A DNA stretch of 63,868 bases, the filler included, from Reclinomonas americana ATCC 50394 (taxonomy: Eukaryota), in the NCBI GenBank assembly GCA_048213135.1. It is 8 parts of 3 records of this genome, joined end to end, with 100 filler letters (N's around TTAATTAATTAA, not from the genome) between each part and the next. Parts side by side here need not be neighbours in the genome. Positions count along the whole stretch, not along the records: positions 9,082 to 14,526 come from PS015050.1; positions 14,627 to 42,017 come from PS015050.1; 6 more parts are not named here. One strand, 5' to 3'. The stretch's first letter is position 1. Every line of letters starts with the position of its first letter. The notes below the pieces were generated by a model. That model was not told the origin of the DNA and searched no databases. It was given only the letters and a program-made list of their open reading frames with translations. Shown here piece by piece: positions 2 to 35,886 of this stretch. Made by a program: the position numbers and the translations under genes.

Positions 2-1383
2 GCTCGCTTCTGCAACGACTCGGAAAAGGCGCTGCGTCAATGCACCCGCTGGCTCAAGCACGGTGTCGATGGTGTGGAGCGAATGTCGGCACCGGTGCGA
101 GGTCGGAGTCCAGCGGCGACAGCGGCGGCGGCGACAACAACGCTGTGGATGGTGCGACATCCCACCAGTGAGCGACTGTGCTCACGGCTGTTGGCGGTGC
201 GTCGGGTGGTCGACCGTGAACTCGGTTTCGCCTCGGACGCGGCCACCGAGTTGGCCGACTACACGGTGCGTCTCACTGCCTGCATCGTAACTTGTGACAC
301 GGCGTGTGACTTTTATTCCTGGCACAAACGCAGGTCTACTTGTGCACGCGCCAGTGCAACATTGTCGGCTGTCTGTTTGCACACTCGATCACGGATGCCG
401 TGCGCATCTCGCCAGTGGGTAAGACAACTCTTGCTCACTCAGCGAACGAGTTGCGGTTTGCTCTGACACGCCGATGGGCAGGAGGAGGCACACGTGTGGA
501 GGATGCCGAAACTGCCGACGACTGTTGCAGCTTGCAGCTATCGCAAGAGGATCGTCGGCATCTCGATTCGGTGGCGAGCACGCTGAAAGTGTGCGTAGCA
601 GAGCAAGTCTCGTCTTTTTTTTGGTGATTCCCGCCTGAACCTCGACTGTGCAGGTGTCGTCCTGCGCCCGCCGAATTGATGGGCCGCTCACTTCTCGGTG
701 TGAGTCGTGTGTGGGTTCATCCGAGCTGTCGGAGGCAAGGTGTGGCCGCTGCGCTGCTGGATGTCGCCAGGCGCACCTTTTGTTATGGAGTGCACCTTGC
801 GGAGCATGACGTGGCGTTCTCGCAGCCGACCACCACCGGCAAGATGTTGGCGATGAGTTACACGGGGCGCAAGGACTTTCTCGTATATTCCGAGACGGGA
901 GGCTCGCCAACAAGATCGTCATCTGCGCCACCAACACCACCACCCCCACCCCCATCAAATCGTAATGTAACAAAGAACAGATTACTATGTTACATTTTTG
1001 TTACACGCGCTCTCTATCTGGCACCGATCCAACCTTTTCTCGCATCGCGCGACTCGTCACCCTGCGGTGCGTGCAATCCATCAGTCGACAGCAACGGCGG
1101 TGCGCCTTTCGACAAACGCAACTGCATCGCTCTCCAACTCGAACTCCTCGTCGCACTCCTCGTCATCGTCACCAGCTTGCACGACGTCATCGTCGCAGTC
1201 ATCCTGCAACACAGGCGCGCGTGTCAGACAACGCCACAGCCGATATCACTAACGAACATACCCTCTGCGGCACAGTCCACCTCCACGTACTCAGCAGCGT
1301 CGAATCCGGCTCCGGTGGCACCAGCACCGAGCCACGATTCACCGAGTCCACCAGCGACGCCTCTTCCAGGTGCCCGCGGATAG
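2..1383 (+). CDS. ECO1: Eco1/ESCO-family cohesin acetyltransferase. 5'-partial and spliced. Conserved domain ends near 888, and the true 3' end is uncertain.
   Basis: Spliced translation gives VDRELGF, VYLCTRQCNIVGCLFAHSI and LLGVSRVWVHPSCRRQGVAAALLDVARRTFCYG...VAFSQPTTTGKMLAMSYTGRKDFLVY, the typical Eco1 C-terminal signature. GT-AG introns at about 266-333, 419-481 and 590-653. Confidence 0.9.
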
Positions 1384-8857: not shown

Positions 8858-9025
8858 TCGTGAGCGCGGTTGTTTGTCGCGTAGATGCGCAAAAAGACAG
8901 AGAGCAGACAGAGAGTGAAGAAACAGCAACAGCACCACCCAATAAGCAAGCGAATGAACCACGATTACCAATTCTCATCTANNNNNNNNNNNNNNNNNNN
9001 NNNNNNNNNNNNNNNNNNNNNNNNN

Positions 9026-9037
9026 TTAATTAATTAA
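9026..9037. other. Artificial assembly linker TTAATTAATTAA within N runs (also at 14571, 42062, 47579, 53743, 57152 and 60006)
   Basis: Identical 12-mer with stops in all six frames, centred in a 100-nt N spacer each time. Confidence 0.97.
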
Positions 9038-9748
9038 NNNNNNNNNNNNNNNNNNNNNNNNNNNNNNNNNNNNNNNNNNNNCAGATATCGTGAGCAATGG
9101 GTTCATTCAAACGGAACTCCACCATGATCCTCTTTCACTCTCTAAACGTCCATTTCTCTCGCTCTCTCGCATCCTGCTGTCTTGCTTCCTTCTATCACAT
9201 GACAGCTTCGTCTCAGTTTGTTCCACGTGCACCCAGTGTCGATTCACACTCATCTCAACTCTCTCTCTCTCTCTCTCACACACACTCTTCACAGCACTAA
9301 TCACTTGCACCTCCCGGTTCTGCTCCTTCTCTCCACAGCCACCTCTATTGCTTGGATTCATCAGACTACTTCTTCTCATCCCTCCGTCACACACTCTTGA
9401 CGCCGCACATCTCCTGTAGTAATTTCAATCTCGATTCCTCCCTCAGCAGCCTCATTCGCTCACTTTCATCGAGCATCTTCATGCGCCTATTCTTCACCTT
9501 ATCTCCCTCTCCCTCTCGCGCAGTACTCCTCACTCTAGACGGTCTTCTCTCGCTGCCTTAGTCTTCGGCAATCCTTATCCTCTGCGTCCTGCCCCCCTTC
9601 TCGTCTCATCTATTCCAATCCGCCGCTGCCNNNNNNNNNNNNNNNNNNNNCCCCTACTCCCCTTCTCATATCCCCCTCTCACCATTGATACTCAGGTGAT
9701 TCCAGTTGCAGTGCATGTCGGTCTCACAGAACCCATCTGCACGCACTG

Positions 9749-11900
9749 TCAGTCACCAATCTCAACATTCACCGTCCGCGATGCGCAACTCGTCGGATTG
9801 ACACACACTCCATCCGCGTCGCGGCATGTCTGCGTGTTGTTGCATCCCGAGCACACGCTGCAGGTGGGACCCGTCCACTTACCAACGCACGATCCACAGT
9901 CCACACCGGTCCAGTGCGAGCTGCACTTGCATGTGTTGTCGGCCTGGCACGTACCATGCAAGCACGAGCAGGCAGTGCACTTGGGCTGAATGCGCGATCC
10001 GAATGGCGTGTTGGTGATGCCCGCAAAGGCAACGTTGTCGATGAGCCAGCCAATTTCCGGATTGTACATATCTGTCCCAATGCGGAAGCGAATTGCGACC
10101 GTCTTGCCTGTGTGCCGAGGAAACGCGGAGATCACGTTACTCAGATATCACACGCACGCACACATGGTGCGCGACCATTACACACCCGCGAAAGCCTGAC
10201 CAAAATCGAGCGTCTCACGCCGCAGAACCCACCCTTCTGGACGGAGATCGCCGCCCGTGTAGGCGCGTCGACCACCCAGTGGATTATCGTACTTTACAGA
10301 GATCACACCAGTATATGAGGGCTGTGTGAAACGCAAGAATCAGAGTGAGCATTGTTGCGCAAGGAATACACCAACACTCGTTACACGCGCGCTATACTCG
10401 CAATACCTCAATCACCAGTACGTATACGCATTGCGTGCCGATACCCTGCTGCGTGCACTCGCAAACTATCTCTTCCTGCCGCTCCTCACTTATTCCCTTC
10501 CCCTTCCTGCCATCTTCGTCTCTTCTTCATCTTTCTGTTGATTCTCTCGGTTCAACCACTCACCGACGCCCAATGCGAGACATCATTCCAGGTCAATTCA
10601 TCGTCACTGGAAATCTCCACCACACCGCCATCATTTGCTGCGGACGTGTCCGCGTAGTACTCAAACGAGTACGCGTGATCAAAGGTGACAACAAAGGCCT
10701 TTGTCGGATCACTCGACACGACCACCGGGGGCGACTGCAGCCACGTGTCGCTGGTAAAAGCAGAGTCCTCGCCGTAGAATAGTGAATTGCCGAACGTAGG
10801 TGTGAAAATGTACCACGCATTCACAGTGCCACCAGCCTTCCACACTCCCAGGATATAGGGCGTGTCCACAGTCTCTGTCGCGGAGTGCGCTGGTGCGTAT
10901 TCCACGCTGACAAGACTTAAAAACGAGCCGACTGTCTCACGGCACGCCTTGTCACCGGTGATCGACACATGGCCTTGCAGTAAAATCGGATCGATGTTGC
11001 GCAACGATGACGCTAGGTGGAACGAGAAATCGATTGTAGTCGACTGTCCAAAAGACGGCACAGGAACAATCTTGGACAGCACGGCAAACTCCACGTCGGC
11101 AGGTGTGTTGGGATCCGCAACGAGTGTCACCGTCATTGTTGTGTTGCTGCCAGTAAAGTATTGGGGATTGCGAACAACCACTCGCACCACACCATCCTCA
11201 CCGGGTTGCTGCGAGCATGTGTGTACATATACGAGAGAGTGAGCTGGTGGGAAGCGTAAGAATGGTGTCGGATGCGAAAATGAACGCACGCACCACCAAG
11301 CCATCGTGATTGCAGTTCACAGCACCCTCTTCCACGCTCGCTTGGTCCACCACAATACTGAACTTGGACCAATCATCGTCAAACGACTCAACCACATCAG
11401 AGTTGTCATACTGCGTCGGCGAGGCCGCGCATGCACCTGAGTGTGGACAACTTGTTTGTAAGGCTCAGTGACATGAACAGGCAGTGACATGAACAGGCAG
11501 GGCTTACCGAGTCCGCGCACAGCAAATGCTGCAGCCATAGTCACTGCGTCTGCTGGGTTCACAACGCTGGTCGCCATCAGCAATGCATCACGCTGCTGTG
11601 TAAATGTGGCATCGGCTGGTGTGATCAGCAAGCCGGCCACCACGTAGTCGGCCATGGCGCGCTTGACTTGCGAAAAGGTGCGACCATTGGCGTTCTTGTG
11701 GAGGTTGATGTAGGCCTGCATGAAGGAGGAGAGGGGAAGAAGTGAGTAAATGGAGAAGGAGAGGGATGAAATCCAAAGACAGACGGACCTTCCACGAGAG
11801 ACACAGACAGACGGAGACAGAGAGACACAGACAGGCAGANNNNNNNNNNNNNNNNNNNNGACAGACAGACAGACAGACAGACAGACAGGCAGACAGACGA

Positions 11901-11957
<57 letters not shown>

Positions 11958-14260
11958 GAGAGAGAGAGAGATAGAGAGAAGAATGGGAGACAGAAAGACA
12001 GAGAGACAGAGAAGAAAAAGCGAAGGGCGGAAGAAAAGGAGTGAAGGAATACGAGAATTGTGAGGTGGAATGAGAAAAATGTAATGATTTTGCCTTCCGC
12101 TTCATCCTTTTCCCATCCCTCCCAGCTTACCTCAAACATGGCACTTGCCCAGATCTCACCCACATTGTGAGGCTCGGAATTCGGTATGCCGTCGCTCGCC
12201 AAGGGGCCAACGGGCACTGGTGGAGTGAACAGGAAGGGCACGTTGTCGGAGATGTACTTGAACGTCAACGGGTTCTTGCTCTTGTCAACCGAATACGGAA
12301 GACGCCGGACGCCAAAGTACGCGTCGAGCACGACATAAGCGGCGATGGCATACGTTCCGTCCAGGTTGTCGCCCTCACGCAACACCTGGTGCAGGGCGAC
12401 AAAATCTGCGATGCCTTCCGACAAGGAGACACACTGTTTGCGGTAATTGCACTGCGCGAGGCGGAAATGGAGGTAGTGGCCCCACTCGTGACTGGTGCTC
12501 GTGTCCAGCGCACTGGCACGTGTCCTCGCTGGCTTCAACTCTCCAGTCACAGTTCCGTTGCTGCTGTTGAGAATGGCGAGCAGAGCGTTACCGTCGGTGT
12601 TGCCGATCGATACAGTCGGGATGTTCACAGACGGTGAAAATAATTCAAAAGGGATATCTATTGCGGGGTCGAATGTGTTGATAATCAGCACGCCGACGGC
12701 ACCCGCTTGCTCGGCTAGGGCGGCCTGGGTCTGCGGACTGCATATGTAACCAGCACTCTGAATTAGTGCAATGGATCCAGTCACATTCTCCGTCACGGCT
12801 GCGCACGCCGCGGGATCGATGGTCGCCGCCACAATCGGGGCAGACACCTTCGCTCGTGTGCGTGTGCGTGTGCGTGTGTGAGTGGCACATTGTGAACACA
12901 CGACGAGGGACATCCACGAACCGAATATACCACCGGGCTAAAATCCGCCGTGCGAGTTGGGTACGACACACCCGACGGTGTCACAAGCACACGTGGACCG
13001 GAATCGCCGGTGACACCGACGGTTGAAAGAAACGATTGCATGCGTGGGTGCATGCCATCAGACGGAGTCGACATGTTGGCGTTGTCCAAACCGCCGTAGT
13101 CCTGCGCTTCCGCCTTCATCGAATCACCGCCCACACCACCGCGTCCGTAGTTGTCGTCCTGCGCGTTACCGGCCGCCTCGTCGAACCCAGAGTCGTACCA
13201 GTAGTTGTGCAGGAAGTTGATGGTGTAAAACAACTGCGTAACCTCGGCCATGGTCTGGCTCTGCGACGCCAGCGCATCTTTCGTCTCGTCGTAGACGTAG
13301 TCGAAGGTGTTTGGTGAAGTGATGGTGGCACGCAAGTCGCCCGCACTGAATCCGTCGGGTACCGCCAAGTCGGCGTACGCGTCCACATTATTACCGCGCG
13401 TCTCTGTGGCACCCGATGGCAGCCACGGGTCGTTAAACTTGTTGAACGAGTCCATCGAAACAAGCGACGGTGGCACGAAAGCCGGGAACAGGCCGTCGGG
13501 CATGCCAGTGGGGTGTGGCGTCCAATCCTCTGTTGGGCCGTCGGCCGGCAGTTTGTCGCCGTCGGTGCGCGCCCACACGCGGTAGTTGAAGGTCTCACTG
13601 GCAGTGAGGTTGGCCGACTCGAGCACGTGCCACGAGTCGCTGGCGATGACGAAGCGGAAGACGGAGGGTGATGCGGTGGTGGAGGAGGTAGCGTCAAACT
13701 CGACAAAGAAGGCCGGGAGGAGGGTGCCGGAGGGGGCGGGGAAGAATGCCTGCTCATAAGGGAAAGGGAGGGTGAGCGATCCGGAGAGTACAAGGTAAGG
13801 GGAGAGGGGAGAGGGGAGAGGGGAGAGGGGAGAGGGGAGAGGAGAGAGGGGAGAAAACAGTGAAGGGCGGAACCAGGGGAGAGGGAGAGGGCGAGAAACG
13901 AGATGAGCAAACGGGAGAGTGCAGACATGATGGGAGCTTGTGGCTTGCACAGCGATAAGAGAGGAAAGAGGAGAGAAAATGAAGGAATAGGATGAGGAAT
14001 GAGGAACGAGGTGATGACAGAAAAAGTCAGGGCAAAGTGAACGAGAAAGCTGGTACGAAGGAGAACGACGACGGAGAGCATCGGCAGAGTAACAAGGATG
14101 ATCTCCTTCAGCTTCATGCACAGTGCGCTGAGCAAAGGATACGCGGAGAGGAGAGAAGGGCGCAGAAGGGAATGAGAGAAAGAGTGTGCCCACGTGAGCG
14201 AGAAAGCATGTCAAGAGACAACAGTGAAATGCTGATCCACCTAGCGCCAAGCGCAGAGAC

Positions 14261-14292
<32 letters not shown>

Positions 14293-15854
14293 GAGACGTA
14301 TGGAGACGAGAGAGATAAGAGTGACAAAGACAGAGAGAGAGAGAGAGGGAAATTGAAAGTGGAGAAAGTGAGCAGCAAGGCGAGAGAACAGTGGATTGGT
14401 GAGGCACGGCTGAGAGAATGAGTGAGCGAGGGGAATGCGTGCGTGTATGGGAGGGAGGGAGAGCTCGAGAGAGATGAGTACTTCCCCCTTGAAGGTGGAT
14501 GGCACACACACCTTCCTCACACGACTNNNNNNNNNNNNNNNNNNNNNNNNNNNNNNNNNNNNNNNNNNNNTTAATTAATTAANNNNNNNNNNNNNNNNNN
14601 NNNNNNNNNNNNNNNNNNNNNNNNNNGCCGTGCGGACTGCGGACAGACACCGACGCGCCCTCACTCGTGTACAGCCACACATCGCTGTGCAAACCGTGGC
14701 GCGTGAACTCCTCCACGCGCACATCGTCCACACCGACGGTATTGTCGGCGCCGAAATGAGCATGCAGCGCTGCAACCAGCGCCAGCTTGTACTGTACGAC
14801 GTCGGCGGGCACCGCGAAGGCGCCATCGACAGACGAGGAGGCGACGTGGTGCTCGGAGGAGGGCGTGAAGGAGGCAACGTCAACCAGCGATCCAGTGGCC
14901 GACAGCAACTCGAACGAGGTCGGGTGGAGCAACATACGAACTTCGCTGTTCAACACCTCGACACCGTGGACAGACTGGCGGACGTGCGCAGCTGCGACGC
15001 GTCCACCGTGCAGTGATGTAACCACACGAGCCACATGCAGAGAGACGGAGGCGGACTCGGCTGCGAGCGGGGGAAGGCACAGAGTGAGCACACATCGAAC
15101 AGAATTCAATTTGCAAGAGCTGCGCAAGCTCGGAAAAACTGTGTGTGCAATGATTCGAAGGAACCAAGCAAGACCACACGCACGATGGCATCACACGAGT
15201 TGCCGACATGGGCGAGTGGGTGGTCAAGGAAGAGCGACGTAGAGAGCGCAGAGGGAATCGGTGTGCGTTAACGTTAAAACATGCAAGCTGACACGAACAT
15301 GGCCACCGACACGCAGCGCTGCGCAACGCGCGTGCGGATCCGGAGGTACACTAAACACAGAGAGACGTTTCTGCCTCCTCTTTCTCTCTGTATCACTCAC
15401 CAGCAGGAGTCGCGTGCACTCCAAAGCTGTGCTGACGGCGAGTGCGAGTCGAAGAAGTGGTGGCCACGGACATTTCCACTTGTACACCCACGAGACGACG
15501 CACGTGAATCAGCGCCGCATCCTCAACCGTGCGCACACTCGCTGGTAGCACGTCGTGGTGCGCCGACGAGGCAGAAGAGGAGCTCGAGTGAGTGGCGTGG
15601 AATGAGAGGTGAATGCGCGAGGAGGGCGCGCGGTTCCACTGTGCATCATTGTCAGCAGAAATACTTGAGTCGTGATAAACGCGCGTGTGTGTGTGTGTTT
15701 TCTGTGTGCGTGTTCGTTGCGTGTGCGCATCAAAACTGAAACGCACCGAGGGAGAGCTAGGGTCGCGCGAGAGGGCACTCGCAGTTAACACAGTGAGTGC
15801 GCCCACAACGAGAACCAGCGTCAGCATGGCGGAATGCCGGATATCGAAGCGCAT
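9749..15854 (-). CDS. Secreted M36 (fungalysin-family) zinc metallopeptidase: signal peptide, FTP/PepSY-like propeptide, catalytic domain with inserted PA domain, beta-rich C-terminal domains and Cys-rich EGF-like tail
   Basis: Hydrophobic N-terminus MLTLVLVVGALTVLTASA. Motifs TRGNNVDAYAD, QLFYTINFLHNYWYDSGFDEAAGNAQDDNYGRGG, AEAQDYGGLDNANMSTPSDG, HEWGH (12476-12490), SLSEGIADF, FGVRRLPYS and NSEPHNVGEIW. PA motif AEQAGAVGVLIIN. Several GT-AG introns. Confidence 0.92.
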
Positions 15855-16188: not shown

Positions 16189-16326
<138 letters not shown>

Positions 16327-17098: not shown

Positions 17099-18147
17099 TC
17101 ACTCCGTCCAACACCATCCAGGCGCACGGTGTGCAATCACCTCTGCGTCCTCCCGCACAAAACACCGCAGCACGACATCGACCAGGATCCAGTCGTGGTC
17201 CTCGTCGTCGTCGTCTTCGGCAAGCAGCTCGTTGACGGCCAACACGGCTGATCGTGCGGCCGCAAGCTCTTGCCGCGCCAGCCCGCGCGGCGTGGACCAC
17301 ACTCGGATCGTCTCGTCCTCACTGCCACTCACAATGTGCTGCCCGTCGGGTGTCACTGCCACTGCATACACATTTCTCGTGTGGCCTTCCAGTCGGCGCA
17401 ATTCTTGCCCACTCGCCAGCGACCACACCCGTACAGTCTTGTCAACACTGCCACTCACAATGTGTTCGTCATCGGGTGTTACAGCCACTGCACATACCCC
17501 ACTCGTGTGACCTTCCAGTCGCTGCACCTCCTCGCCACTTGCCACCGACCACACCCGTACAGTCTTGTCATAACTGCCACTCACAATGTGATGGCCACCG
17601 GCAGTCACAGCCACAGCACATACCCCGCCCGTGTGACCTTGCAGTCGACGCACCTCCTCACCACTTACCACCGACCACACTCGGACTGTCTTGTCATCAC
17701 TGCCGCTCACGACGTGCTGGCCATCGGGAGTGATCGTGACAGACCATATCTCGTCAGTATGTCCCTCCAGCAGTCGCACTTCTTCTCCACTCGCCAGCGA
17801 CCACAAGCGCACTGTCTTGTCATAGCCACCGCTGACAATGTGCTGACCATCTGGGGTAACGGTGACAGATGTCACCGTGTCGGTGTGTCCCACCAGCCGT
17901 CGCACCTCCCCCCCATTCGCCAGGGACCACACACGTACGGTACTGTCTCCACACCCACACACCATTTGCTTGCCATCGGGGGTGACAGCGATAGAGAACA
18001 CCATGTAAGTGTGCTCCTCCAGCCGTCGCACCTCGTCGCCACTTGCCAGTGACCACACTCGAACTGTGTTGTCCGCACACACACCGACAATGTGCTTGCC
18101 ATTGGGAGTGACGGCGACAGATCGCACTGTTGCGAAACTCTGAATGA
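17099..18147 (-). CDS. WD40-repeat exon with seven 42-aa repeats of high internal identity plus a short acidic/helical tail. The 5' end is not identified.
   Basis: Repeat consensus LEGHTxxVxAVAVTPDGQHIVSGSxDKTVRVWSLASGEEVRR with a 126-nt period and no introns. Putative acceptor cgcag just upstream of 18147. Confidence 0.9.
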
Positions 18148-18229
18148 TCTGCGTCGATCAACGCGGTGAGACGCACACGCACAGCAAAATTGGAAGACAC
18201 GCACACACACACACAAACAACAACACAAA

Positions 18230-18505: not shown

Positions 18506-19106
18506 CTCTGATTCATCCGACGGAACATCAACAACCTCTATCTCTCTCGCGTGTGTGTGTGTGCGCCTCGTGATGCTGTCTGTGTCTCGTAGCCTCCTGT
18601 CTCTGCGCATCCTCGTCGTGATGCTCTTCTTTCAAATTGCTATGTGAGTGAGATGTTGTGGCGTAGAATGCGTGCATGCATGCATGCATGCTGAGCCAGT
18701 TCCAACTCGACACGCTATGAGCATCAACCCCCTCCGAGCCACGCATGTGAGTTGGGGGCGGCGAGGCAACAGCACACGATGCGAAGGAGGCTCGAGGCGA
18801 CTCAGAACATGAGTTCTCAGAGCACGTATGCATATGCAAGCGCAGTGTGCAAGGCAAGGGCACACTCTCTCTCCCGTGGCGTGGGCGAGGAGAGTGGCCA
18901 TCTGAATCGATGCTTGATGCGCTCACCATGTTCATGCGATGCCAGTGTGAAAAGAAGTGGCGGACAGTGATGCTGCTTCACAAAGCAACCACGCCGCGTT
19001 CGAATGACAGGGCGACATGGGCAGATGTGGATTTGTGAGCGAGGACTCGCTGAACGGCAAGCAGCACGCGTGATCTGTCCGTTCCATGGCCTCAACTCAC
19101 CTACCC
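18506..19106 (+). repeat. Diverged ~590 bp direct repeat, copy 2
   Basis: See copy 1. Also preceded by a (GT)n tract. Confidence 0.9.
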
Positions 19107-19386
19107 ACGTGCACATGTACACACCAGAGATGTCACGGCCACCACCGGGGGCGACAGCAACTAGTTTACTGGCGTCGCCCAAAGATCATGAGTGTGCCCA
19201 CCCAACCGCCGCGTATCGTGAGTCGCTTCGTATTATGCATGCGCAACAATATCGTCGTCGTTCACCAACGAGCCAGTACGTTCAACAGGCACACAAAGCA
19301 CCTTTTCTGCCTGCGCGGCGGTCAAAGGACATCATATCATGTAATGCATTCACTCGTCACCTTGCGTTCGATCACACACAGAGGCC

Positions 19387-20086
19387 ATGCACACTGCGCT
19401 CTTGCTTGTGCTTGTGGCAGCATGCTGGTTGTGCACCCTGTTTGTTACCGCGGAGCCAATGCTTGAGCAGCGCAATGGTGTGTTCAGTGTCTTTTCAGCG
19501 CACTCCGTGTGTGCGTTATCCGTTCGAACTCTGCGTCTCCTTCGCTCTTTATCTCGAGCCTTTTCTCTCTCTCTCTCTCTCTCCCCCTTGTGTGTGCCAC
19601 ATCATTGCGCATACCTGCTTGGCGGTACCCGATTTGCTGACGTTCCACGCGCTGCGTGTGACGAGCGCGCGCGCGCGCGCGCAATGTCGCTTCATTGTAA
19701 AGCTTATCGCCTTCACACAGCCCGTCTCCTGCTGGTGCCCTCCTCGCCTACGTACACACCACCATCAACACGCGGTGAAGTAATTGGCGAGCTGCGAGCG
19801 GACACAGACCAACAAGATCATGTGCATGCCGGTTCTGCTGTTTTGCTCGCGGTGATCATCGACGACTGCGCCACCGTGGATGACGAGGAGGGCGGCGGCG
19901 GCACGGACTTGCACCTGTTCACCGTGCGCACAGGCCTTCACGGTCATGAGCTTATCATGGGCGAGAGTGGAGTGTCGGGGTCTCCGTTGATGGTCACTGT
20001 GAGCTGTACCGCGACCTTACTGCCAGTCGACAACAACAGCAACGACGCCCGTGATTCTGCGGCGTCACCGACCGGTCCTCGGACTG
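19387..20086 (+). CDS. 5' exons of a signal-peptide-bearing protein, possibly the N-terminus of the NHL/FN3 protein
   Basis: MHTALLLVLVAACWLCTLFVTAEP looks like a signal peptide. The open frame runs into the gap. Confidence 0.45.
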
Positions 20087-21274
20087 NNNNNNNNNNNNNN
20101 NNNNNNNNNNNNNNNNNNNNNNNNNNNNNNNNNNNNNNNNNNNNNNNNNNNNNNNNNNNNNNNNNNNNNNNNNNNNNNNNNNNNNNNNNNNNNNNNNNNN
20201 NNNNNNNNNNNNNNNNNNNNNNNNNNNNNNNNNNNNNNNNNNNNNNNNNNNNNNNNNNNNNNNNNNNNNNNNNNNNNNNNNNNNNNNNNNNNNNNNNNNN
20301 NNNNNNNNNNNNNNNNNNNNNNNNNNNNNNNNNNNNNNNNNNNNNNNNNNNNNNNNNNNNNNNNNNNNNNNNNNNNNNNNNNNNNNNNNNNNNNNNNNNN
20401 NNNNNNNNNNNNNNNNNNNNNNNNNNNNNNNNNNNNNNNNNNNNNNNNNNNNNNNNNNNNNNNNNNNNNNNNNNNNNNNNNNNNNNNNNNNNNNNNNNNN
20501 NNNNNNNNNNNNNNNNNNNNNNNNNNNNNNNNNNNNNNNNNNNNNNNNNNNNNNNNNNNNNNNNNNNNNNNNNNNNNNNNNNNNNNNNNNNNNNNNNNNN
20601 NNNNNNNNNNNNNNNNNNNNNNNNNNNNNNNNNNNNNNNNNNNNNNNNNNNNNNNNNNNNNNNNNNNNNNNNNNNNNNNNNNNNNNNNNNNNNNNNNNNN
20701 NNNNNNNNNNNNNNNNNNNNNNNNNNNNNNNNNNNNNNNNNNNNNNNNNNNNNNNNNNNNNNNNNNNNNNNNNNNNNNNNNNNNNNNNNNNNNNNNNNNN
20801 NNNNNNNNNNNNNNNNNNNNNNNNNNNNNNNNNNNNNNNNNNNNNNNNNNNNNNNNNNNNNNNNNNNNNNNNNNNNNNNNNNNNNNNNNNNNNNNNNNNN
20901 NNNNNNNNNNNNNNNNNNNNNNNNNNNNNNNNNNNNNNNNNNNNNNNNNNNNNNNNNNNNNNNNNNNNNNNNNNNNNNNNNNNNNNAGGAGAGAGAGAGA
21001 GAGAGGGAGGGAGGCAGAGAGGGAGGAGGGTGGGAGAAAGAGCAAGAGAAAGAGAGGGAGGGAGGGAGAGAGAACAATAGAGAGAGCAATAGAGAGAGAG
21101 AAAAAGAGGGAGGGAGAGAGCGGGAGATAGGGAGAGAGAATGAGAGAGAGAGACAGGACCAAATGCAGAGAGATATAGATACAACAAATGCAAACACACA
21201 CACACACGCACGCGCACACACTCTTTCGATTCAGTATAAGCGAGGCGCTTTCGTGTGGCCACATGTAGTACCCA

Positions 21275-22463
21275 CCGAATGGTGTGATTCAGCGTGTCGG
21301 CCACGTACACACACTCATGATTCGTATTGGGATCCGCGGCAAGACCCTGCGGCCCCCCAAACTGCGCGGCAACACTGGTCCCGCGTGGCCGGTCAGCAAT
21401 ACCTTGGCTGCCGTTGCCAGCCAACGTGGACACCGTGGTGCCGACAATCGAGCGAACGGCGTGGTTGGACTCCTGTAAGTGTGTGTGTGTGTGTGTGCGC
21501 GCGCGCAGTGAGACGAGGTTGTGCGGCGAGGCAGCGCAATCGCACGCAACTTCAGAGACATAGATGACTTGTGTGTATGGGTCAATGAAAATGTCGGTGG
21601 GGCTGAGAAAAAGGGGTCAGCAAATGACCCTCGACGTGGACGAGCGCGGCAACAGGAAACTCACTGCGAAAAGCGCGCATCGCTGGTGCCGTTGGCAAAG
21701 CCCGGCGTCGCAACAACGCCAGCAAAGACGCTCACAGTGCCAGAGAGAGTCACTGTGCGAATGACATGCGTGCTGCACGCCGATGAAAGGTAGGGTGAGT
21801 TGCGACACAAAACACAGCCGGCTCATAAAAAAAAAACATACGCACTCATACTCTGTGAAAAATGCATTGCCGGTGGCGTCCACCGCAACACCCTATGTGC
21901 AAACAGTGGCCAGTTGTGAGCGATCTCGCATCAGCACAAGGCAGTGCCTCTGTCCCAAATAGGCACACACCCACGGGGAGGAGCTCGCGGCCAGGGTGGA
22001 GACCGAAATCGCTCGGCCAATGGCACTGGACACACCAGAGATTTGAAAACCGAGACCGCCCACCGCGATGCCCGTACTCGACAAGACAGAGCCCTGCAGC
22101 GTGATGGTGGTGCTCGTCGTCGCTGAGGGAGCGAGGGTGGTGATGGTCGGAACACCTGCAACACGCGTTGTCAGAAAACTGCCAAGTATTCTCTCTGCGA
22201 CTCGGGCACGGTACCGACAGCAGAAGCACCTTCTCGACGGAGAGCGGCGAACTCGTCATAATTGGCCAAGCGCGCTTCGCATGCACATCGTCACGCGCAT
22301 CGTGATGGCCGGTGTCGCTGCCATCATTCACCTCCGTCGCACGAACACGCACCTGTTGCAAACACGACATGATGTACTCGTCCACTCCCGCTGCTGCTGA
22401 GGAAGGCGGCGGCGTCCACCACAACTCGCAGCCATTGGCGATGCGCAGGGAGGCAGTCGGCGC
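21275..22463 (-). CDS. NHL/FN3-like protein segment. The contig is probably inverted relative to the rest of the gene.
   Basis: VSTLAGNGSQGIADRPRGTSVAAQFGGPQGLAADP...VYVADTLNHTIR, VSVFAGVVATPGFANG and the FN3-like start GVPTITTLAPSATTSTTITLQGSV. Confidence 0.75.
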
Positions 22464-23193
22464 CTGGACGACAAGGGAAAACGAGTGTCGTGAGTGGCGA
22501 TTGACGTCGACAGCGCGGAGTNNNNNNNNNNNNNNNNNNNNNNNNNNNNNNNNNNNNNNNNNNNNNNNNNNNNNNNNNNNNNNNNNNNNNNNNNNNNNNN
22601 NNNNNNNNNNNNNNNNNNNNNNNNNNNNNNNNNNNNNNNNNNNNNNNNNNNNNNNNNNNNNNNNNNNNNNNNNNNNNNNNNNNNNNNNNNNNNNNNNNNN
22701 NNNNNNNNNNNNNNNNNNNNNNNNNNNNNNNNNNNNNNNNNNNNNNNNNNNNNNNNNNNNNNNNNNNNNNNNNNNNNNNNNNNNNNNNNNNNNNNNNNNN
22801 NNNNNNNNNNNNNNNNNNNNNNNNNNNNNNNNNNNNNNNNNNNNNNNNNNNNNNNNNNNNNNNNNNNNNNNNNNNNNNNNNNNNNNNNNNNNNNNNNNNN
22901 NNNNNNNNNNNNNNNNNNNNNNNNNNNNNNNNNNNNNNNNNNNNNNNNNNNNNNNNNNNNNNNNNNNNNNNNNNNNNNNNNNNNNNNNNNNNNNNNNNNN
23001 NNNNNNNNNNNNNNNNNNNNNNNNNNNNNNNNNNNNNNNNNNNNNNNNNNNNNNNNNNNNNNNNNNNNNNNNNNNNNNNNNNNNNNNNNNNNNNNNNNNN
23101 NNNNNNNNNNNNNNNNNNNNNNNNNNNNNNNNNNNNNNNNNNNNNNNNNNNNTCTCCTCGCGACGACGGTAGTACTCATCGTGTTCGCTGTCA

Positions 23194-26100
23194 GACGCCA
23201 AGTCACGTTGTTCGACGGCTGTTGTTGGCGGACGGATCGCTTGATGTAGTCGCCGGCTTGCCTGGTACAAGTGGGTTGGCAGATGGCACTGTCAGCGATT
23301 CGCGGCTGTCGTCTCCGGTGTGTGCGCGCAGTGCTGTCCTTTCGCTGCCCACGTTCCTCATTCAGTCCCTCATCGTTCACTCCAAACTCTGCTAGCGTGG
23401 CCTTGCTTTTGACTTGATGCGTGGACGACTGCTTGTCGCTGGTGCGTGTATCCTTTTCCGTCGCGCCTCGTTTGGTCGTCGTCGAGACTGACTTGCTGCT
23501 CCATCAGACACAGGAAATGCGAAACTGCGGCTAGTCGCGCTCCCAGCAACCACGGTCGCTGCCTCTCCGTCCACAGCAGCAGGCGATTCGCAGCTGGTGA
23601 CGTTTTCTGCGACAGTTTCGCAGTTGATGCCGGCGACGATATACTACGTGCGTGCGACGGCATCCACACCAGCACTCTCCGGCACCGTGGCTTCCATGAC
23701 CACCGCCGCAGGTATTTTCCTCGCGCTGTGAAGATGAGGTACTCAGTTGAGCTCGCTCTCTCACTGCGGCTTACTCCATCAGCACCCACTTGGATCGCAC
23801 CCAGGGTCACGCTGTCGAAAAACTCGCTGAATCTTGCGCTTACGACCGCCGACTTCAGCGCGCTTGTGAATCCTCGAAACGGATTCCCTGTTCGGGGCAC
23901 CGTGCAGGTGTCAATGTCGCCAGATGCGTTTGGTGATGCTCCGCTGGTGTCGACCTTGAAAAGTGTCCCGCGAGCCCCGGCACCTCCGTCGGATCCCGCT
24001 GCAGTAATCGGCTTTATGGTTGGTGGTCGAATTATCTCGACTGCCGTTGAGACTGTGTGTGCCAACCTCTCAGTGCTACCTGCAGGGTTTGACTGTTGAC
24101 GGGAGCGGTAACGTCCTTGTGGCTGATGCGAGGTGATTCGCGAGTTGACTCGCTCACACTTCATGCGAAGCTGGCAGATTTCTTTGTTGTGTGTGTGTGT
24201 GTGTGTGTGTGTGCGCAGCATGTTGTACTCATCTCACTTATCTCTGTTCTCGCCTCTCAGGGACCACGTTGTTCGATCCGTTTCGGCCATCGGAGTTGAG
24301 ACGATTCTCGTCGGTCAGATTGGCGTTGCCGGCTTTGTCGAAGGCGCGCCGACCAGTGCTCTCTTATCCAGGTCTGTGATTCACTCTGTGCGCGCGAAGC
24401 AAAGCTAAAGGACACTGCTGACTTTGGGTCTCCCACACAGTCCGACTTCTGTTGGGATCGACCGCGAGACAGGAGATGTTTTCATTGTTGATGTATGTAG
24501 CAGTTGTTTGTCTCTCATCTGGGTGCCATACATGCGCGCCTCTCAACCCTGAGCACAGAGCGGCAACAATGCCATCCGCAAGCTATTCGCTGGTGTGCTT
24601 TCTACCCTGGCGGGCTCTATTGTCGGCACAGCTGGTCACAATGACGGCATTCGCAACAACGCGCGATTCACGCAGCCACGTGGTATCGCTGTGGATTCGC
24701 TCGCCGATCGTGAATGCCTGTTTGTCACCGACTCTTTGCATACCGTGCGGTGAGTTGCTGGCGTCCGTTCATGCAGACCGCTTGTGGCGTGCATGCACAC
24801 GCACACTGATTGTTGTTGTATGTGTGTTTGTTTGTGCTAGTCGTGTGTCTCTCCGAGGACTTGTGACCACCATCGCCGGTTCGGTCGGTATCCCGGGCAG
24901 TACAGACGCCGTAGGCACTGGCGCCTCATTTCATTCGCCGATCGGTCTCGCCCTGGACTCGAATCAGAACGTGCTCTTTGTCGCCGACACCGGCAACCAC
25001 ATCGTGCGCAAAATTGTGCTGGCCAGCTTGGCGGTCACAACAGTGGCCGGTCAGTTGTCGTCGCCCGGATATACTGATGGTGCTCCGGGTGTTGCCTTGT
25101 TCCGCGATCCGATAGGAGTGGCATTCGATCATCTCTCTGGCTCTCTGTTTGTTGTGGAGGTGAGCTGGTTTGGTGTGCTGGAGGCGCTCGTCAACAAGCG
25201 TGAAGATTTACGTCGTTTTCGAATTCTGTCGTGCCAGGCCGGCAACCACACGGTGCGGGTCGTTGCGGCATCCGGGAGTGTGAGCACACTTGCAGGTTCA
25301 CCAGCTTGGCCCACCGCCACCGACGGGTCACTCACCTCTGCGTCGTTTCCAACACCGGTACAATCTGGCGTGCATTCTTTCAGAAGCCTACGATGAAACT
25401 GTCTAATCTTCACTACGATTTCCACTCTGCAGCACGGCGTAGTTGTCGAGGGCTCCACCATGACACTGACGACGAACGATGTTGTCACTGGTGACAGTGC
25501 CATCCGAATTATCACGCTGCCACCGACCCCATTTGTCACCTCACCCGCCACTGCCACTGGATCCTCTACGCGCTCCCTGCCAGCTAGCGTCGCGTTAGCT
25601 TCGGGCTTGTCGTACACATATCGCGGAGTGGACCTGAACTCGCCTTTTCGGTCGTCTACTGTCTCGGTCACCACGAATTTCGGTGGGCCAATTTAGTATT
25701 TTGTGACTGTGGAAGCCTTCTGACTGCTAACTTTCGAGGGCCCATCTCAGTGACTTCGTTGACCACCGATACCGCCACCAATGTCGATGTGAATTCGGCC
25801 ACGTTGACAGGCGCTGCCACACGCACAGATATTTTGGCCGGCTTTTTTAAATTCGAGGTGGCCACGTCAGCTGATTATTTCGGTAGTGGTGTGGCCACTG
25901 TGTCCACTCTAGCTGGGCCATCGGCAGTGGACAGCAGCCTGTCATTATCGTCGCCCATGGTCTGTTGTTCTTTGTTGTCTATTGTGGCCAGGCTCGCGAC
26001 TTACCCGAATTGTGATTGCCGATCACAAAAAGGGCGTGGTCGTGGACTGGACCTCAGGTCGCATTGTCGTCTGTGATACGGGGTGCATTTCTGCGTGTAT

Positions 26101-26948
26101 TCTGCCCCTTGCGCTGTTGCCGAGTCGGACTCATTCTCCTTCNNNNNNNNNNNNNNNNNNNNNNNNNNNNNNNNNNNNNNNNNNNNNNNNNNNNNNNNNN
26201 NNNNNNNNNNNNNNNNNNNNNNNNNNNNNNNNNNNNNNNNNNNNNNNNNNNNNNNNNNNNNNNNNNNNNNNNNNNNNNNNNNNNNNNNNNNNNNNNNNNN
26301 NNNNNNNNNNNNNNNNNNNNNNNNNNNNNNNNNNNNNNNNNNNNNNNNNNNNNNNNNNNNNGTGCAGCAACCACGTGATTAGGTCAGTGGGTACGGATGG
26401 CAGCGTGAGCACGCTGGCCGGCACTCTCGGTGTCTCGGGCTCGTCAGACGGTCCTTTTTCTGCAGCCAGTTTCTCTCGGTGCGTAGGTCGCAGAGCGTGA
26501 TGCCGACGATGAACTGCATATCTGATCGCGTTTTTCGCAGACCGTTTGGCGTGGTTGTGGACGCACGCAATGGGGACATTCTTGTCACCGAGGTGCGCGA
26601 ATTCGAAGCCATATTCTTGGCGTCTGTGCGCATGTAGTCATTGATGTTGTGTTACTTGTAGGATGGCAACCACAGCCTTCGTCGTCTGTCGGCGAGTCAA
26701 GTTTCCACAGTGACGACTGACTTTCAGGCTCCTCGAGGAGTGGCAGTCGCCGAGTTTGCCGGTGGCGAGTTCTATGTGGCCGATGCTGCGCTGCATGTTA
26801 TCCTGTGCGTTTTACGCCCTGTGGGGCGCCACCCTTGTTGCATCACCTGTCTCATCAGCTTTGTGTCGCAGTCGCACCTCCTCCAGTGGGCTTGTAAGCG
26901 TGCTGGCTGGTACTCGAGGGAGCAGCGGATACGCAGATGGTGTTGCCA
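23194..26948 (+). CDS. NHL-repeat/FN3-like giant protein, central exons
   Basis: Repeated units VxTLAGxxGxxGxxDGxxxxAxFxxPxGIAxD...LFVADTGNHxVR, with many short GT-AG introns. Confidence 0.9.
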
Positions 26949-26968
26949 NNNNNNNNNNNNNNNNNNNN

Positions 26969-28149
26969 CACCACGTGCGCTCTGTTGGGCGTGACAAGGA
27001 TTCAGTGAATGATTGTGAGGATGCGCGAGTAAACATGACGCACTGATAGTCGGTGACGAAGAACGTGCCGGTGCTTGCATCCAATGCCACGCCCTAATTT
27101 TTCATCAAACAAAAGGAAAGGGATGTTATGACACGCTTACCGGCAACGAAATTCCTCGCAGCGTGAGCCTGACGCACCCTTGGACTCGGGAATGCCCCGC
27201 TGCTGGGAGCAACCAGGGTGGACAGGACAGGCACCGAGCTGCCAATGGCGGCAGACGAGAGAGCAAAAAGAAAAGCATTGTTGGTGCCGCTAGTGTCAAC
27301 TGTCGCATTCAGCACAGCACTTGTTGAGGTGATTGACGACGCGGCCAGCGTGCTCACACCAGGTGCTACGATGCAAGGAAGTGGGTTCCAACTTTCAACT
27401 CCACATGGGCTGTCAGACTTGCTCACGAACCCGCACTCGTGGTAAACTGGCTTGACTGGGGACGAGCCGACAAGTCGGAGAGGCTGACTAACCGATACGA
27501 ATATGTCGTCGACGGCAACAACTGCAGCGCAGTCACAGAACCCGAATAGCTGGTGGCATTACCACCGCTACTGGAAGGGCTGAAGGCGGTCGCGTCGGGT
27601 GGGATGGTGACAAGTCGTATGCGTGAAGATCCAGCATCTGACACAAGCACACACGGTAAACATTCTTATCTGGATCGAAGAGATCACCACTGCACGAACG
27701 CACCGGAAACAAAAAGAGCGCCGTGCACGGCTGACATCATGCCTGGTACACTGAATCTGGCATTAACGCCGGAGCCGTCGACGACAGCTCCGGCTGCGGA
27801 GGATGTTCCTGCAACAACTATTAACTGACTACCGGAGAGATAGCGGATGCAATTGTTGCCCGTCTGCAAGTCGCAATCTTCAGCTTGGGGGGTAGCAGGA
27901 GGGAGATCAGATGAGACGCAACATCAGCCACGAATATAGTCCGCGCATCTGGGTAAACAACGACGCCGGTTGGGTTGTTCATGAGATAGTCAGTTGCGCC
28001 AGACATGCCGGGTTGTCCAGCATAGACAAAAACGTCAAGGGTGCTCAGGTCCACCGCGCGGATCACGTGATTGCCGCTATCGGCCACCAGCAGGATCCTT
28101 TCTGTCGAATGTAGCGCGATTCCAGTTGGTTGATTAAACGAGGCCGCGG
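26969..28149 (-). CDS. NHL/FN3 protein segment. Inverted contig that continues the reading frame from 26948.
   Basis: AASFNQPTGIALHSTERILLVADSGNHVIR, LQLLPSTTYSYRL and VSTLAASSITSTSAVLNATV. Confidence 0.88.
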
Positions 28150-28628
28150 NNNNNNNNNNNNNNNNNNNNNNNNNNNNNNNNNNNNNNNNNNNNNNNNNNN
28201 NNNNNNNNNNNNNNNNNNNNNNNNNNNNNNNNNNNNNNNNNNNNNNNNNNNNNNNNNNNNNNNNNNNNNNNNNNNNNNNNNNNNNNNNNNNNNNNNNNNN
28301 NNNNNNNNNNNNNNNNNNNNNNNNNNNNNNNNNNNNNNNNNNNNNNNNNNNNNNNNNNNNNNNNNNNNNNNNNNNNNNNNNNNNNNNNNNNNNNNNNNNN
28401 NNNNNNNNNNNNNNNNNNNNNNNNNNNNNNNNNNNNNNNNNNNNNNNNNNNNNNNNNNNNNNNNNNNNNNNNNNNNNNNNNNNNNNNNNNNNNNNNNNNN
28501 NNNNNNNNNNNNNNNNNNNNNNNNNNNNNNNNNNNNNNNNNNNNNNNNNNNNNNNNNNNNNNNNNNNNNNNNNNNNNNGTCGATTCAGTGTGTTGTCGGT
28601 GCGCTGCCTCCGCTCATTCGTCGTGCAG

Positions 28629-33670: not shown

Positions 33671-34699
33671 CGACGAACACGACAGACTGGCAGATAGACT
33701 ACCAGAGACACAGATGTATAATACACACCGGCACAAGACACACGCAATTGCACAAAGAATTAATGTGCGCAAGGAGGAGACGGAGAGAATGGCAGACAAA
33801 CTACAGACACTCAAACAGAGCAACAGAGGCGCAGCAAGAGAGACAACATGCTTGACGACACAAGCAGAGACACAGACAGATCACTGAAACTGTGCAAAGT
33901 GAATGGCAGACAAACACCAGCAACACACCTGCACAAACAAGGCAAAGAGCAGAGAAAGACAGCCACTTCCCGCCTCCTCCCTTTCCCTATCCCCTCCCTT
34001 CCCCCTTGTCCCCTCCCACGCACCTGCTTCATGTACGCCTTCTTCAGCGCATCCACCTGCTCCTCCAACAACGCATACCGCGCCTCCGCCTCCTTCACAA
34101 ACACCACATTACGGTCGTGCTTGCTGGTGACGGTCGCCAGTTGCTCCTTGACCATCTGCAGCTCCATGTCCTTCTGACGCAGCAAATGGTCGCGCTCCTG
34201 AATCACGTCCTCCAGCGGCTGCAACACCACGCGCATCTCCGCAATGCGGAACTCGTACGTGGCGATCTTCTCCAACAACTGCCGCCGATCCTCCTCGTTC
34301 TTAAGGGCCAGCGCCGCCGCCTGCTCCTCTTGACCGCGCAGTTTCGCGTTCAGCTCCGCCACCTCGCTCTCCAGCGACACGATTTGTGCCACCTTTTGTG
34401 AGGTGAGCTCCTTGGCGCTGGCGCACGTGTCCGTCATGGCCGACAGGCGGGACATGAGGTCGTTGATTTCGTGGGACAGTCGGTCCTTCTCCGCCTTGTG
34501 GACCTCCTGCGAAAGAGAACGAAGAAATGAGCGAGAAGGAACGATGCAAAGGAAAAGACAGAGAGAGAAAAAAAGAAAGAAATAGGAGAACAATAATGAG
34601 AAAGAACAGGGGAAGACGAACAGAGGGAGCAATCGAGCAGCGAAAGGAGCAGAACATGAAGAAGGAGAAGGTGCAAAGAAGACGAACAGAGCGAGAGGA

Positions 34700-34762
<63 letters not shown>

Positions 34763-35753
34763 ACACGAGACACATTTGCATTCTCGACAAGAGTACCGCT
34801 TCTCAAGGAAACAGCAATAAAAACACACTCTCTCTCTCCCTGCCTCCCTCTCCCTTCCCCGACTGCTTTCTCCCTTTCCCTCATCACTCACATCCTTGCG
34901 TCGCAGCCGCTCATTAATATCATCATCGATGCGCGCAAACCGCTCCTGCGCCTCCTTCTGGAAGCCCTTGAACTTGGCGTCCACCTTCTCCGTCTCGCGC
35001 GTCTGCAGCTTCAAGTTGCTCTCCGTCTCCTGCAACTTGGCCGCCAACTCACGATTTTGGTTCTCCAACTCGTGCGCTCGCAGCGTGTCGCCACCGCGGT
35101 GCTTGCGGAAGGCATTCAGCTCGTGCGTCATGTCTGTGCCACTCAGTCAATGATAACGAAAGAAACAAAGACTCTTTTCCACACACACACACACCTATCG
35201 CGCGCTTCTCCGCAGCCGCCACTTGCTGCTTCAGCTCGTCGTTCTCCTTGCGCACGTCATCCAGCGACCATGTGATCGTGTTGATGCGCTCCTCTAGACG
35301 ACCGACCGTGGTCGCACCCTCCTCCAGACGCTCCTTCAGCACGTGATTCTCCTGCTCGAGTGCTGCGCGCTTTTCCACAATCTGCGAGCAAAAAAAGGGA
35401 GCACGATGATGAGCAGCATGAAAATGAGAGCAAGGAAGGGACAGGACAACCTCATGAATATCACGGAAATGAGACGAGACATCTCTCTCCCACACTCTCA
35501 GAACAGAACACGCCAAACCATCAGTTTCTCTCATACAGTCAGAGAACACAGTCCAGACATTCTCTCGTGAACACAGACCAAATATTCTCTCATTCTCACA
35601 CTGTACCATCGCAAGCCAACAAAGATCGCAGAAACGCACAGACACATCAATGACGTTTAACACAAACGCACTCCTCCTTCCCTTCTCTGCTTCAGTGAAA
35701 CCCACACATAATAACACACACACACACGCACACACAACAAGATATCCTCGCTA

Positions 35754-35838
<85 letters not shown>

Positions 35839-35841
35839 GAA

Positions 35842-35886
<45 letters not shown>

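Follow-up and report, generated by a model that had tools for sequence, protein, structure and literature searches.

The stretch of DNA analysed here (63,868 nucleotides of Reclinomonas americana ATCC 50394, assembly GCA_048213135.1, made up of eight parts of three records; "the window" below) comes from a genome that is GC-rich and intron-rich, and it carries on its minus strand, from 15854 to 9749, a gene for a peptidase of family M36, the fungalysin family. We joined its exons by taking stop-to-stop minus-strand frames between 9.7 and 15.9 kb and linking them at GT-AG sites, which gave nine exons with GT-AG introns, all in one frame and together encoding about 1310 residues. The encoded parts are, in order, a putative signal peptide, a propeptide, an M36 zinc-peptidase domain that is split by a PA domain, a module with an Ig-like and a MAM-like portion, and a Cys-rich, EGF-like tail. 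Neither a stop codon nor a frameshift occurs in the coding sequence of about 3.9 kb, and 3' of an assembly gap seven exons fuse into a single open frame of 1010 codons with a terminal TGA. AG is present at all eight acceptors and GT at all seven visible donors, the eighth donor having been lost in the gap, and the introns measure, from first to eighth, 340, more than 777, 74, 415, 71, 85, 242 and 78 nt. Several of them are CT-rich or contain microsatellites. A first-pass annotation had placed an intron-containing gene at 9990..15854 and had quoted five peptide landmarks from it. The splice sites bear out the introns, the landmarks all lie on the minus strand, and the start at 15854 holds, whereas the end has to be moved, since the coding sequence reaches 9749 and the EGF-like tail of the last exon had been omitted.

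Exon 1 (15401..15854, minus strand, like every exon and intron given here) begins with the ATG at 15854 and encodes a hydrophobic stretch that resembles a signal peptide, followed by low-complexity sequence over a (CA)n tract, after which the propeptide starts. If splicing used the in-phase donor GTGTAC at 15487 instead, 29 residues without a bacterial counterpart would drop out. Intron 1 (15061..15400; 340 nt, GTGAGT...CAG) leads to exon 2 (14627..15060), which continues the propeptide, can be aligned with the N-terminal, FTP-like part of bacterial homologues and breaks off at a linker (14527..14626; 44 N, TTAATTAATTAA, 44 N) that lies within the gene. Judging from the alignment to bacterial homologues, what is missing at the linker amounts to about three codons plus the beginning of intron 2 with its donor. 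Since the two pieces hold consecutive parts of one protein, we regard the join across 14527-14626 as sound. The visible part of intron 2 (13750..14526) is CT-rich (0.74 pyrimidine), contains an (AGGGGAG)8 repeat and ends in CAG.

The catalytic domain is spread over the next three exons. Exon 3 (12922..13749) holds the end of the propeptide and the N-terminal half of the M36 domain, and ends with the PRMQ landmark; two alternative donors, at 12931 and 12934, are available to it, and all three choices are in phase. Exon 4 (12131..12847) begins with the PA insert and goes on to HEWGH, to the EG.ADF motif that carries the third zinc ligand, to RRLPYS and to HNVGEIW, and it also holds the quoted segment YFGVRRLPYSVD... 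After intron 4 (11716..12130; 415 nt including 20 N, GTAAGC...CAG, with a (GACA)38 microsatellite), exon 5 (11508..11715) encodes the C-terminal helices of the M36 domain, contains the landmark ADYVVAGLL... and ends in phase 1 after RGLG. Exon 6 (11294..11436) is a linker that follows the catalytic domain. Exon 7 (10564..11208) encodes an Ig/CARDB-like module and the first half of a MAM-like jelly-roll (FDHAYSFE...DGGVVEISSD), exon 8 (10186..10321) the middle of the MAM-like domain, and exon 9 (9749..10107) its end (RFRIGTD...GWLIDNV, the landmark quoted as GKTVAIRFRIGTD...GWLIDNVAFAG), an EGF-like, Cys-rich tail of about 75 residues and the TGA at 9751-9749. We also considered further introns of 45 nt within exon 1 and of 20 or 37 nt ahead of the stop codon, but dismissed them for their small size, as no intron in the gene is shorter than 71 nt. 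A tblastn search of the window found no M36 paralogue elsewhere in it.

Domain searches agree with this arrangement. Exons 3, 4 and 5 each match the Pfam family Peptidase_M36 (PF02128) above its cut-off of 23.3 bits (115.4, 56.3 and 28.0 bits, respectively), and residues 2-90 of exon 4 match PA (PF02225) with 46.1 bits against a cut-off of 23.9. This match covers the first 90 residues of the exon, so the PA domain lies between PRMQ and HEWGH, just where it had been placed at first reading. The same placement is found in a bacterial homologue, P0001, in which PA (542-620) sits inside M36 (365-844). The zinc site lies in exon 4 and consists of HEWGH, the Glu of SEGIADF and HNVGEIW, all of which fall in nearly invariant columns of a family alignment of 40 sequences and align with the corresponding motifs of the solved fungal chain 4k90.

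When the exons are compared with NCBIfam models, the top model on exons 3, 4, 7 and 9 is NF038112 (myxo_dep_M36, the myxosortase-dependent type), with 331, 143.7, 73.3 and 38 bits. Its whole-protein cut-off of 1500 bits is inapplicable to a split gene, and the exons were scored singly. The four matches are collinear, covering profile positions 238-483, 529-768, 884-1091 and 1140-1187, and on each of these exons NF038112 outscores both NF038111 and NF038113; on exon 3 the rhombosortase type reaches 255 bits and the type IX secretion system (T9SS) type 123. Exons 1 and 2 have no Pfam match. Exon 2 has a weak match to positions 124-177 of NF038111 (rhom_dep_M36; E 3.4e-4) and aligns with the bacterial region around "..DGVEV.."; bacterial P0001 itself scores only 11.2 bits for FTP.

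The distal part of the protein is harder to classify from its own sequence. Pfam gave no match of InhA-like_MAM (PF20773) to exon 7 or 9 even at E <= 1, and the look-alikes of exon 7 found in the Atlas, CARDB and InhA-like MAM, are leads only. Two bacterial homologues pass the PF20773 cut-off of 26.9 bits (P0035 with 27.4 and P0089 with 31.7), and their matching region aligns with residues of about 1085-1226 of the window protein, which include both distal motifs quoted in the first-pass annotation. On the strength of these matches in homologues, we describe the module as probably Ig-like plus MAM-like. The end of exon 9 stays below the EGF cut-offs (EGF_PEAR1L, 18.8 bits against 37.5; EGF_2, 15.5 against 22.1), and its Cys spacing is EGF-like by eye. 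Bacterial homologues continue past the MAM-like module with PKD domains and then with a MYXO-CTERM tag (GCG..., a helix, RRRR). In the window protein there is no MYXO-CTERM tag, and neither a hydrophobic helix nor an Arg-rich end is present at the C-terminus. Thus, having an EGF-like tail in place of PKD and MYXO-CTERM, the protein would descend from the NF038112 family without being a member of it in the sorting-signal sense.

Database comparisons point to the same bacteria. When exon 3 was scored against longer proteins, 2456 of 8000 matched at E <= 0.001. The best 120 of these 2456 share 50-61% identity with the exon and have PA, M36 and PKD, most of them at a length of about 1300 residues. 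Twenty of those best 120 carry the name of an organism, and none of the twenty is a eukaryote: 18 are Myxococcota (Polyangiaceae, Sorangium, Polyangium, Minicystis, one Myxococcaceae and one listed simply as "Myxococcota"), one is a "Deltaproteobacteria bacterium" metagenome-assembled genome (MAG) and one a "Candidatus Nanopelagicales" MAG. By BLASTP the whole protein is about 40% identical to bacterial proteins over 1100-1230 collinear residues. Exon 4, searched against representatives clustered at 50% identity, yielded 1572 matches at E <= 0.001, and its top match was P0121, a protein of 371 residues (218.8 bits, 51% identical), ahead of a runner-up at 176.2 bits. A word-index search with the same exon restricted to "near" lengths returned only six bacterial-looking fragments and missed P0121.

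P0121 and a second protein, P0157 (292 residues), are singletons on contigs of 2.5 kb and 1.9 kb, respectively, and they differ from the bacterial proteins in an informative way. At the position of the exon 4/5 junction of the window they have in-frame inserts of 26 and 20 residues, in each case with V first and Q last, as would be expected from read-through of a phase-0 GT...AG intron. Among 59 aligned rows this insert is confined to the two, and none of the 56 bacterial rows has it. The homology of both stops directly after RGLG/RGFG, which is the exon 5/6 junction of the window, and that of P0121 starts, after a Q, at the column of the exon 3/4 junction. All three proteins have residues in common that are absent from the bacteria, for example a VPF.F stretch after the KNPLTFK motif, and in all three the HE.GH, EG..D, RR.PYS and H..GE.W positions are intact. 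From the proteins alone, we infer that P0121 and P0157 are intron-bearing eukaryotic genes. Since their inserts fall exactly at intron positions of the window, the M36 gene appears to be part of a small eukaryotic clade rather than a lone recent arrival. P0157 has no PA domain between its ...MQMYVF segment and HEWGH, yet it keeps the same two intron positions, so that PA was probably lost after the transfer in this branch. In a metagenome scan that used the three eukaryote-type sequences as queries, 478 of 606 stretches contained relatives, and of the 79 loci kept (37-53% identical) none was closer than the bacteria.

To place the three sequences we relied on two trees. Two scans of species-representative bacterial genomes supplied 83 named loci, and control genomes contained no M36. 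The first tree (FastTree, 81 rows by 916 columns) comprised the window, 69 locus open reading frames of at least 1000 residues and 11 database proteins; 14 loci were dropped from it, 10 for lack of a reading frame matching the motif filter and four with short reading frames. Here the window joins P0121 with a support of 99, within a Polyangia-dominated clan of 45 rows (98). The second tree covers the M36 core (exons 3-5; IQ-TREE, LG+C20+F+G4 with posterior mean site frequencies, 59 rows by 597 columns). It kept 48 rows of the first, left out 32 clade-mates, and added P0157 and eight further loci, including two distant PA-less forms, one from a Pyrinomonadaceae genome (L165) and one from a Chloroflexia bin (L166). 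The eukaryote-type sequences form a clade in which window and P0121 are sisters (100/86) and P0157 branches outside them (95/93), and this clade is nested successively in a group of 12 rows (90/90), a clan of 31 rows (96/96) and a clan of 33 rows (100/100). The rows of the 33-row clan that are named to family are Polyangiaceae (12), Nannocystaceae (3), Myxococcaceae (2) and Kofleriaceae (1), while the gammaproteobacterial, betaproteobacterial, Eisenbacteria, Acidobacteriota and PA-less copies, and most of those from Myxococcaceae and Archangiaceae, fall outside. A topology that unites the 54 PA-type bacterial rows to the exclusion of the eukaryote rows, a grouping chosen after the tree was seen, was rejected by the approximately unbiased (AU) test (p-AU 0.0066, delta lnL 55.8). 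Hence, instead of grouping with a broad eukaryotic M36 clade, the window lies two supported nodes deep (100/100, 96/96) in a bacterial clan, and the lateral transfer from bacteria that had been proposed from the sequence is upheld by this nesting and by the AU test.

We therefore consider it very probable that this is a nuclear, spliced gene for a secreted M36 zinc endopeptidase zymogen, which an ancestor of the eukaryote acquired from a Polyangia-type bacterium of the Myxococcota. Several points weigh against this interpretation and should be kept in mind. As regards the gene, it is interrupted by a scaffold linker, its splice sites, the choice of donor for exons 1 and 3 and its 3' end are predictions, and Pfam finds neither an FTP nor a MAM domain on its own exons. 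P0121 and P0157 could be paralogues from the same organism. As regards the tree, it consists of bacterial rows and the three eukaryote-type rows, with no fungal or T9SS-type M36 included, and its root rests on two distant PA-less bacterial rows, of which L165 has a long branch (2.25). Within the 31-row clan, the node that would give the eukaryote clade its sister is drawn open (89/79), and the group held together in the AU test was, as said, a post hoc choice. Lastly, many of the bacterial rows are MAG bins whose labels are possibly wrong, and two rows labelled Myxococcaceae fall in the Polyangia-type clan.

One may also consider that the donor was not a myxobacterium but a member of another phylum that holds a Polyangia-like copy, such as one of those represented by the Pseudomonadota, Acidobacteriota or Eisenbacteria bins. 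The family is indeed spread over Gammaproteobacteria, Betaproteobacteria bins, Pyrinomonadaceae, Eisenbacteria and Chloroflexia bins, and the distribution of family labels on the tree requires 15 changes, against a possible minimum of 10. Moreover, the rows nearest the eukaryote clade are loosely labelled MAGs (P0006, P0122, P0123 and the "Deltaproteobacteria bacterium" L055), and a "Proteobacteria bacterium" MAG (L011), which was not carried into the IQ-TREE analysis, lies inside the Polyangia-dominated clan of the FastTree. Against this stand the family-named rows of the 33-row clan, all of them Myxococcota, the position of all rows named as other phyla outside it, and the preponderance of Myxococcota among the named best matches of exon 3. 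We therefore judge a donor from another phylum to be improbable, although it is the least improbable of the alternatives. The Pyrinomonadaceae bin that contributed locus L029 (G002) has five M36 matches (L165, L168, L170, L172 and L174), some of them short enough to lack the PA insert; it thus holds both kinds, which means that PA-bearing and PA-less copies coexist in one bacterium.

A second possibility is that the locus is a decaying, unexpressed relic. The low-complexity stretches of exon 1 and the failure of Pfam to detect FTP or MAM domains in the predicted protein would fit such a scenario. Against it, the nine exons carry some 3.9 kb of coding sequence free of stops and frameshifts, all of the nearly invariant catalytic positions are kept, as they are in P0121 and P0157, and the codon usage matches that of the host. 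This makes a relic quite unlikely.

Less likely still is a transfer in the opposite direction, or a gene ancestral to both sides, in which case the eukaryote clade would be the sister of the PA-type M36 proteins of bacteria, or their source. Such a history gains something from a root that is not fixed by a true outgroup (12 shorter matches included no T9SS-type sequence that could serve as one, all being fragments of the myxobacterial type) and from the fairly long stem of the eukaryote clade (0.24). It is contradicted by the AU test, by the two well-supported nodes that enclose the clade, and by the numbers involved, thousands of bacterial members as opposed to three eukaryote-type sequences. 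In addition, similarity drops stepwise from the myxobacterial to the rhombosortase, T9SS and fungal types, unlike the even pattern that one would expect of a sister to all.

That the gene is a vertically inherited eukaryotic fungalysin, which resembles the bacterial proteins through convergence or fast evolution, is hardly credible, even if the Pfam M36 model that it matches above cut-off is named for fungal fungalysins. On the same exons, fungal fungalysin structures score 3 to 8 times below bacterial proteins (65.6 bits against 308 for P0001 on exon 3, and 22.1 against 176 for P0122 on exon 4), and with bacterial proteins the window stays collinear for about 1100 residues. The stretch at the site of the PA insert measures about 150 residues in the window and about 17 in a fungal chain, and the distal module is missing from the fungal chains. 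The statement in the first-pass annotation that fungal fungalysins lack both the PA insert and the distal domain is thus confirmed by solved fungal chains.

The composition of the gene and its surroundings leave little room for bacterial contamination. The M36 coding sequence has a GC content of 0.58-0.61 and a GC content at third codon positions (GC3) of 0.68; the GC3 of seven neighbouring coding stretches is 0.58-0.76 and that of five Polyangia homologues 0.89-0.96. The neighbours are eukaryotic in character (an ESCO1/2 acetyltransferase, a split protein kinase, a WD40 propeller, NHL repeats, kinesin motors and SSRP1/POB3), and exons 1-2 share an N-free stretch with the WD40 gene. The ESCO1/2 and SSRP1/POB3 genes are conserved housekeeping genes of eukaryotes and would serve as markers for the placement of the host; the SSRP1/POB3 fragment had no match in a word-index search and matched only generic eukaryotic clusters in the Atlas. 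Although exons 3-9 stand by themselves on a 5.4-kb piece (9082-14526) between the linkers at 8982-9081 and 14527-14626, which a stitched-in myxobacterial contig or a chimeric assembly might explain, that possibility is negligible, because the piece contains six complete GT-AG introns, a CT-rich partial one and microsatellites, has a coding GC3 of 0.68 against at least 0.89 in Polyangia, and is continued, with about three residues missing, by exons 1-2 on the next piece, where they are physically joined to the WD40 gene. The earlier argument that introns speak against contamination accordingly stands, now with GC3 and neighbours in its support.

If the gene was indeed acquired from a Polyangia-type bacterium, the donor gene would have been of the kind now found in Polyangia (Polyangiaceae, Nannocystaceae, Kofleriaceae/Haliangiales), and the bacterial body plan would have been kept in order: propeptide, catalytic domain with PA before the HEXXH helix, Ig-like module and InhA-like MAM module. 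After the transfer the gene would have gained a eukaryotic signal peptide and at least eight spliceosomal introns, taken on the codon usage of the host, and lost the PKD and MYXO-CTERM surface-sorting tail, replaced by the EGF-like, Cys-rich tail. Later diversification would have given rise to P0121 and the PA-less P0157, which are in one clade with the window and have intron positions in common with it. As for the product, the signal peptide may direct its export, after which the propeptide would be removed. With zinc held by HEWGH and the downstream Glu, the enzyme would be expected to cleave proteins either extracellularly or within a digestive compartment. The binding or selection of substrates may fall to the PA and MAM-like modules. 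Loss of MYXO-CTERM would remove the bacterial mode of holding the enzyme on the cell surface, and the EGF-like tail may offer eukaryotic anchoring or pairing with a partner.

Of the known systems, the closest are the myxosortase-dependent M36 proteins of Myxococcota (NF038112; Polyangiaceae, Sorangium, Polyangium, Minicystis), which appear to have the same order of parts and among which the window is nested. Unlike these proteins, the one encoded in the window has neither PKD nor MYXO-CTERM and ends in an EGF-like, Cys-rich tail instead, and unlike their genes, that of the window has at least eight spliceosomal introns, a GC3 of 0.68 rather than about 0.9 and what looks like a eukaryote-style signal peptide. 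The first-pass annotation had recognised the layout of large secreted M36 proteins of Myxococcota, and this is right inasmuch as bacterial homologues do have PA inside M36 followed by the InhA-like MAM region. The PA insert is not peculiar to Myxococcota, however, for the PA region is also spanned by the rhombosortase- and T9SS-dependent bacterial M36 models. The likeness to the fungal fungalysins (MEROPS M36; chains 4k90, 7qfy, 7qp3 and 7z6t, "extracellular metalloproteinase (mep)") is limited to the family of the catalytic fold, with HEXXH, a downstream Glu and H..G..WA, since the solved fungal chains, of 388-391 residues, have no PA insert and no distal module.

A functional point of comparison is MepA (MXAN_3564) of Myxococcus xanthus, which belongs to the same peptidase family and comes from the phylum of the presumed donor. 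Passages of the study that deals with it describe MepA as an M36 homologue enriched in the outer-membrane vesicles of M. xanthus; there, disruption of mepA lowered extracellular protease activity and did not stop prey lysis, and the authors suggest that MepA gains nutrients from the protein of lysed cells rather than killing (PMC4158809). With these data in mind, a digestive role in the eukaryote is plausible, and we put it forward tentatively. The role of MepA cannot simply be transferred to a eukaryote, and, unlike the window, Myxococcaceae-type copies lie outside the 33-row clan save for two rows. We are more doubtful about a wider proposal, in which the window, P0121 and P0157 would constitute an undescribed eukaryotic M36 subfamily derived from one old Polyangia-like transfer, remodelled by introns, an EGF-like tail and, in one branch, PA loss, and serving as a prey-digesting enzyme in a lineage of bacterivorous protists.

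The uptake of bacterial hydrolases by eukaryotes is a known route for protists to widen their diet, and the kind of event described here is not new. The gene resembles the bacterial hydrolase genes of phagotrophic protists, such as the proteases and glycosyl hydrolases that are candidates for horizontal gene transfer (HGT) in choanoflagellates, in that a bacterial hydrolase of the secreted kind is found in a nuclear setting, with introns. That phagotrophic choanoflagellates retain horizontally acquired proteases is stated in PMC7971027. M36 is not mentioned in the main texts of choanoflagellate HGT papers such as PMC7971027 or of a Diplonema genome paper, though their supplementary tables might list the gene, and in a full-text literature search no description of a eukaryotic M36 of the myxobacterial type came up.

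We thus see here a fairly ordinary but solid case of a bacterial digestive enzyme kept by a eukaryote, and its value lies in its clarity. A multidomain protein of about 1300 residues appears to have retained the whole bacterial body plan, and its adaptation to the host is directly legible in the introns, at least eight in number, in codon usage like that of the host, in a predicted new signal peptide and in the exchange of the C-terminal module. That the gene was kept and diversified after the transfer is suggested by the two copies that share its introns. With this gene, M36 proteases of the PA-bearing, sorting-signal type, which had until now been catalogued for bacteria, are extended to eukaryotes. 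If the host is bacterivorous, the gene would be a marker for the reuse of predatory-bacterial digestive enzymes in eukaryotic phagotrophy, and if the prey-digestion reading is true, the protease of one predator would have been taken over by another.

The window contains several other features. Directly upstream of the M36 gene and on the same strand lies the WD40 gene, an intronless open reading frame of 352 residues (17102-18157, minus strand) with seven very similar WD40 repeats (258.5 bits for WD40). Between the two, some 350 nt ahead of the ATG of the M36 gene, a (TG)41 tract is followed by (GA)25 (16192-16323), and microsatellites of this kind fill introns and spacers throughout the window. 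Beyond the WD40 gene, a run of NHL repeats extends over about 19000-31000 on both strands and is cut by large N gaps; it may represent a gene family cluster. Its fragments lie at 24422-25393 (plus strand), 27824-28147 (minus) and 29026-29649 (plus), and one of them has a weak Teneurin-NHL match.

In addition to the linker within the M36 gene, six more of the same composition (44 N, TTAATTAATTAA, 44 N) are present, the full set of seven being 8982-9081, 14527-14626, 42018-42117, 47535-47634, 53699-53798, 57108-57207 and 59962-60061. A further 18 plain N runs of 20-991 N take up much of the window, and gene models across linkers need care. A long frame rich in coiled coil and in E, Q, R and L occupies 33814-39613 (minus strand) in several pieces and matches no Pfam family. 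Kinesin motor-domain fragments are found on opposite strands about 4 kb apart, at 40791-41405 (minus) and 45481-46398 (plus), and a third kinesin-like frame (42177-43700, minus) was recognised by eye only. Towards the two ends of the window lie the ESCO1/2-type acetyltransferase (628-1380, plus strand, 98.2 bits) and the FACT subunit SSRP1/POB3 (61112-61768, minus strand, 63.8 and 42.2 bits).

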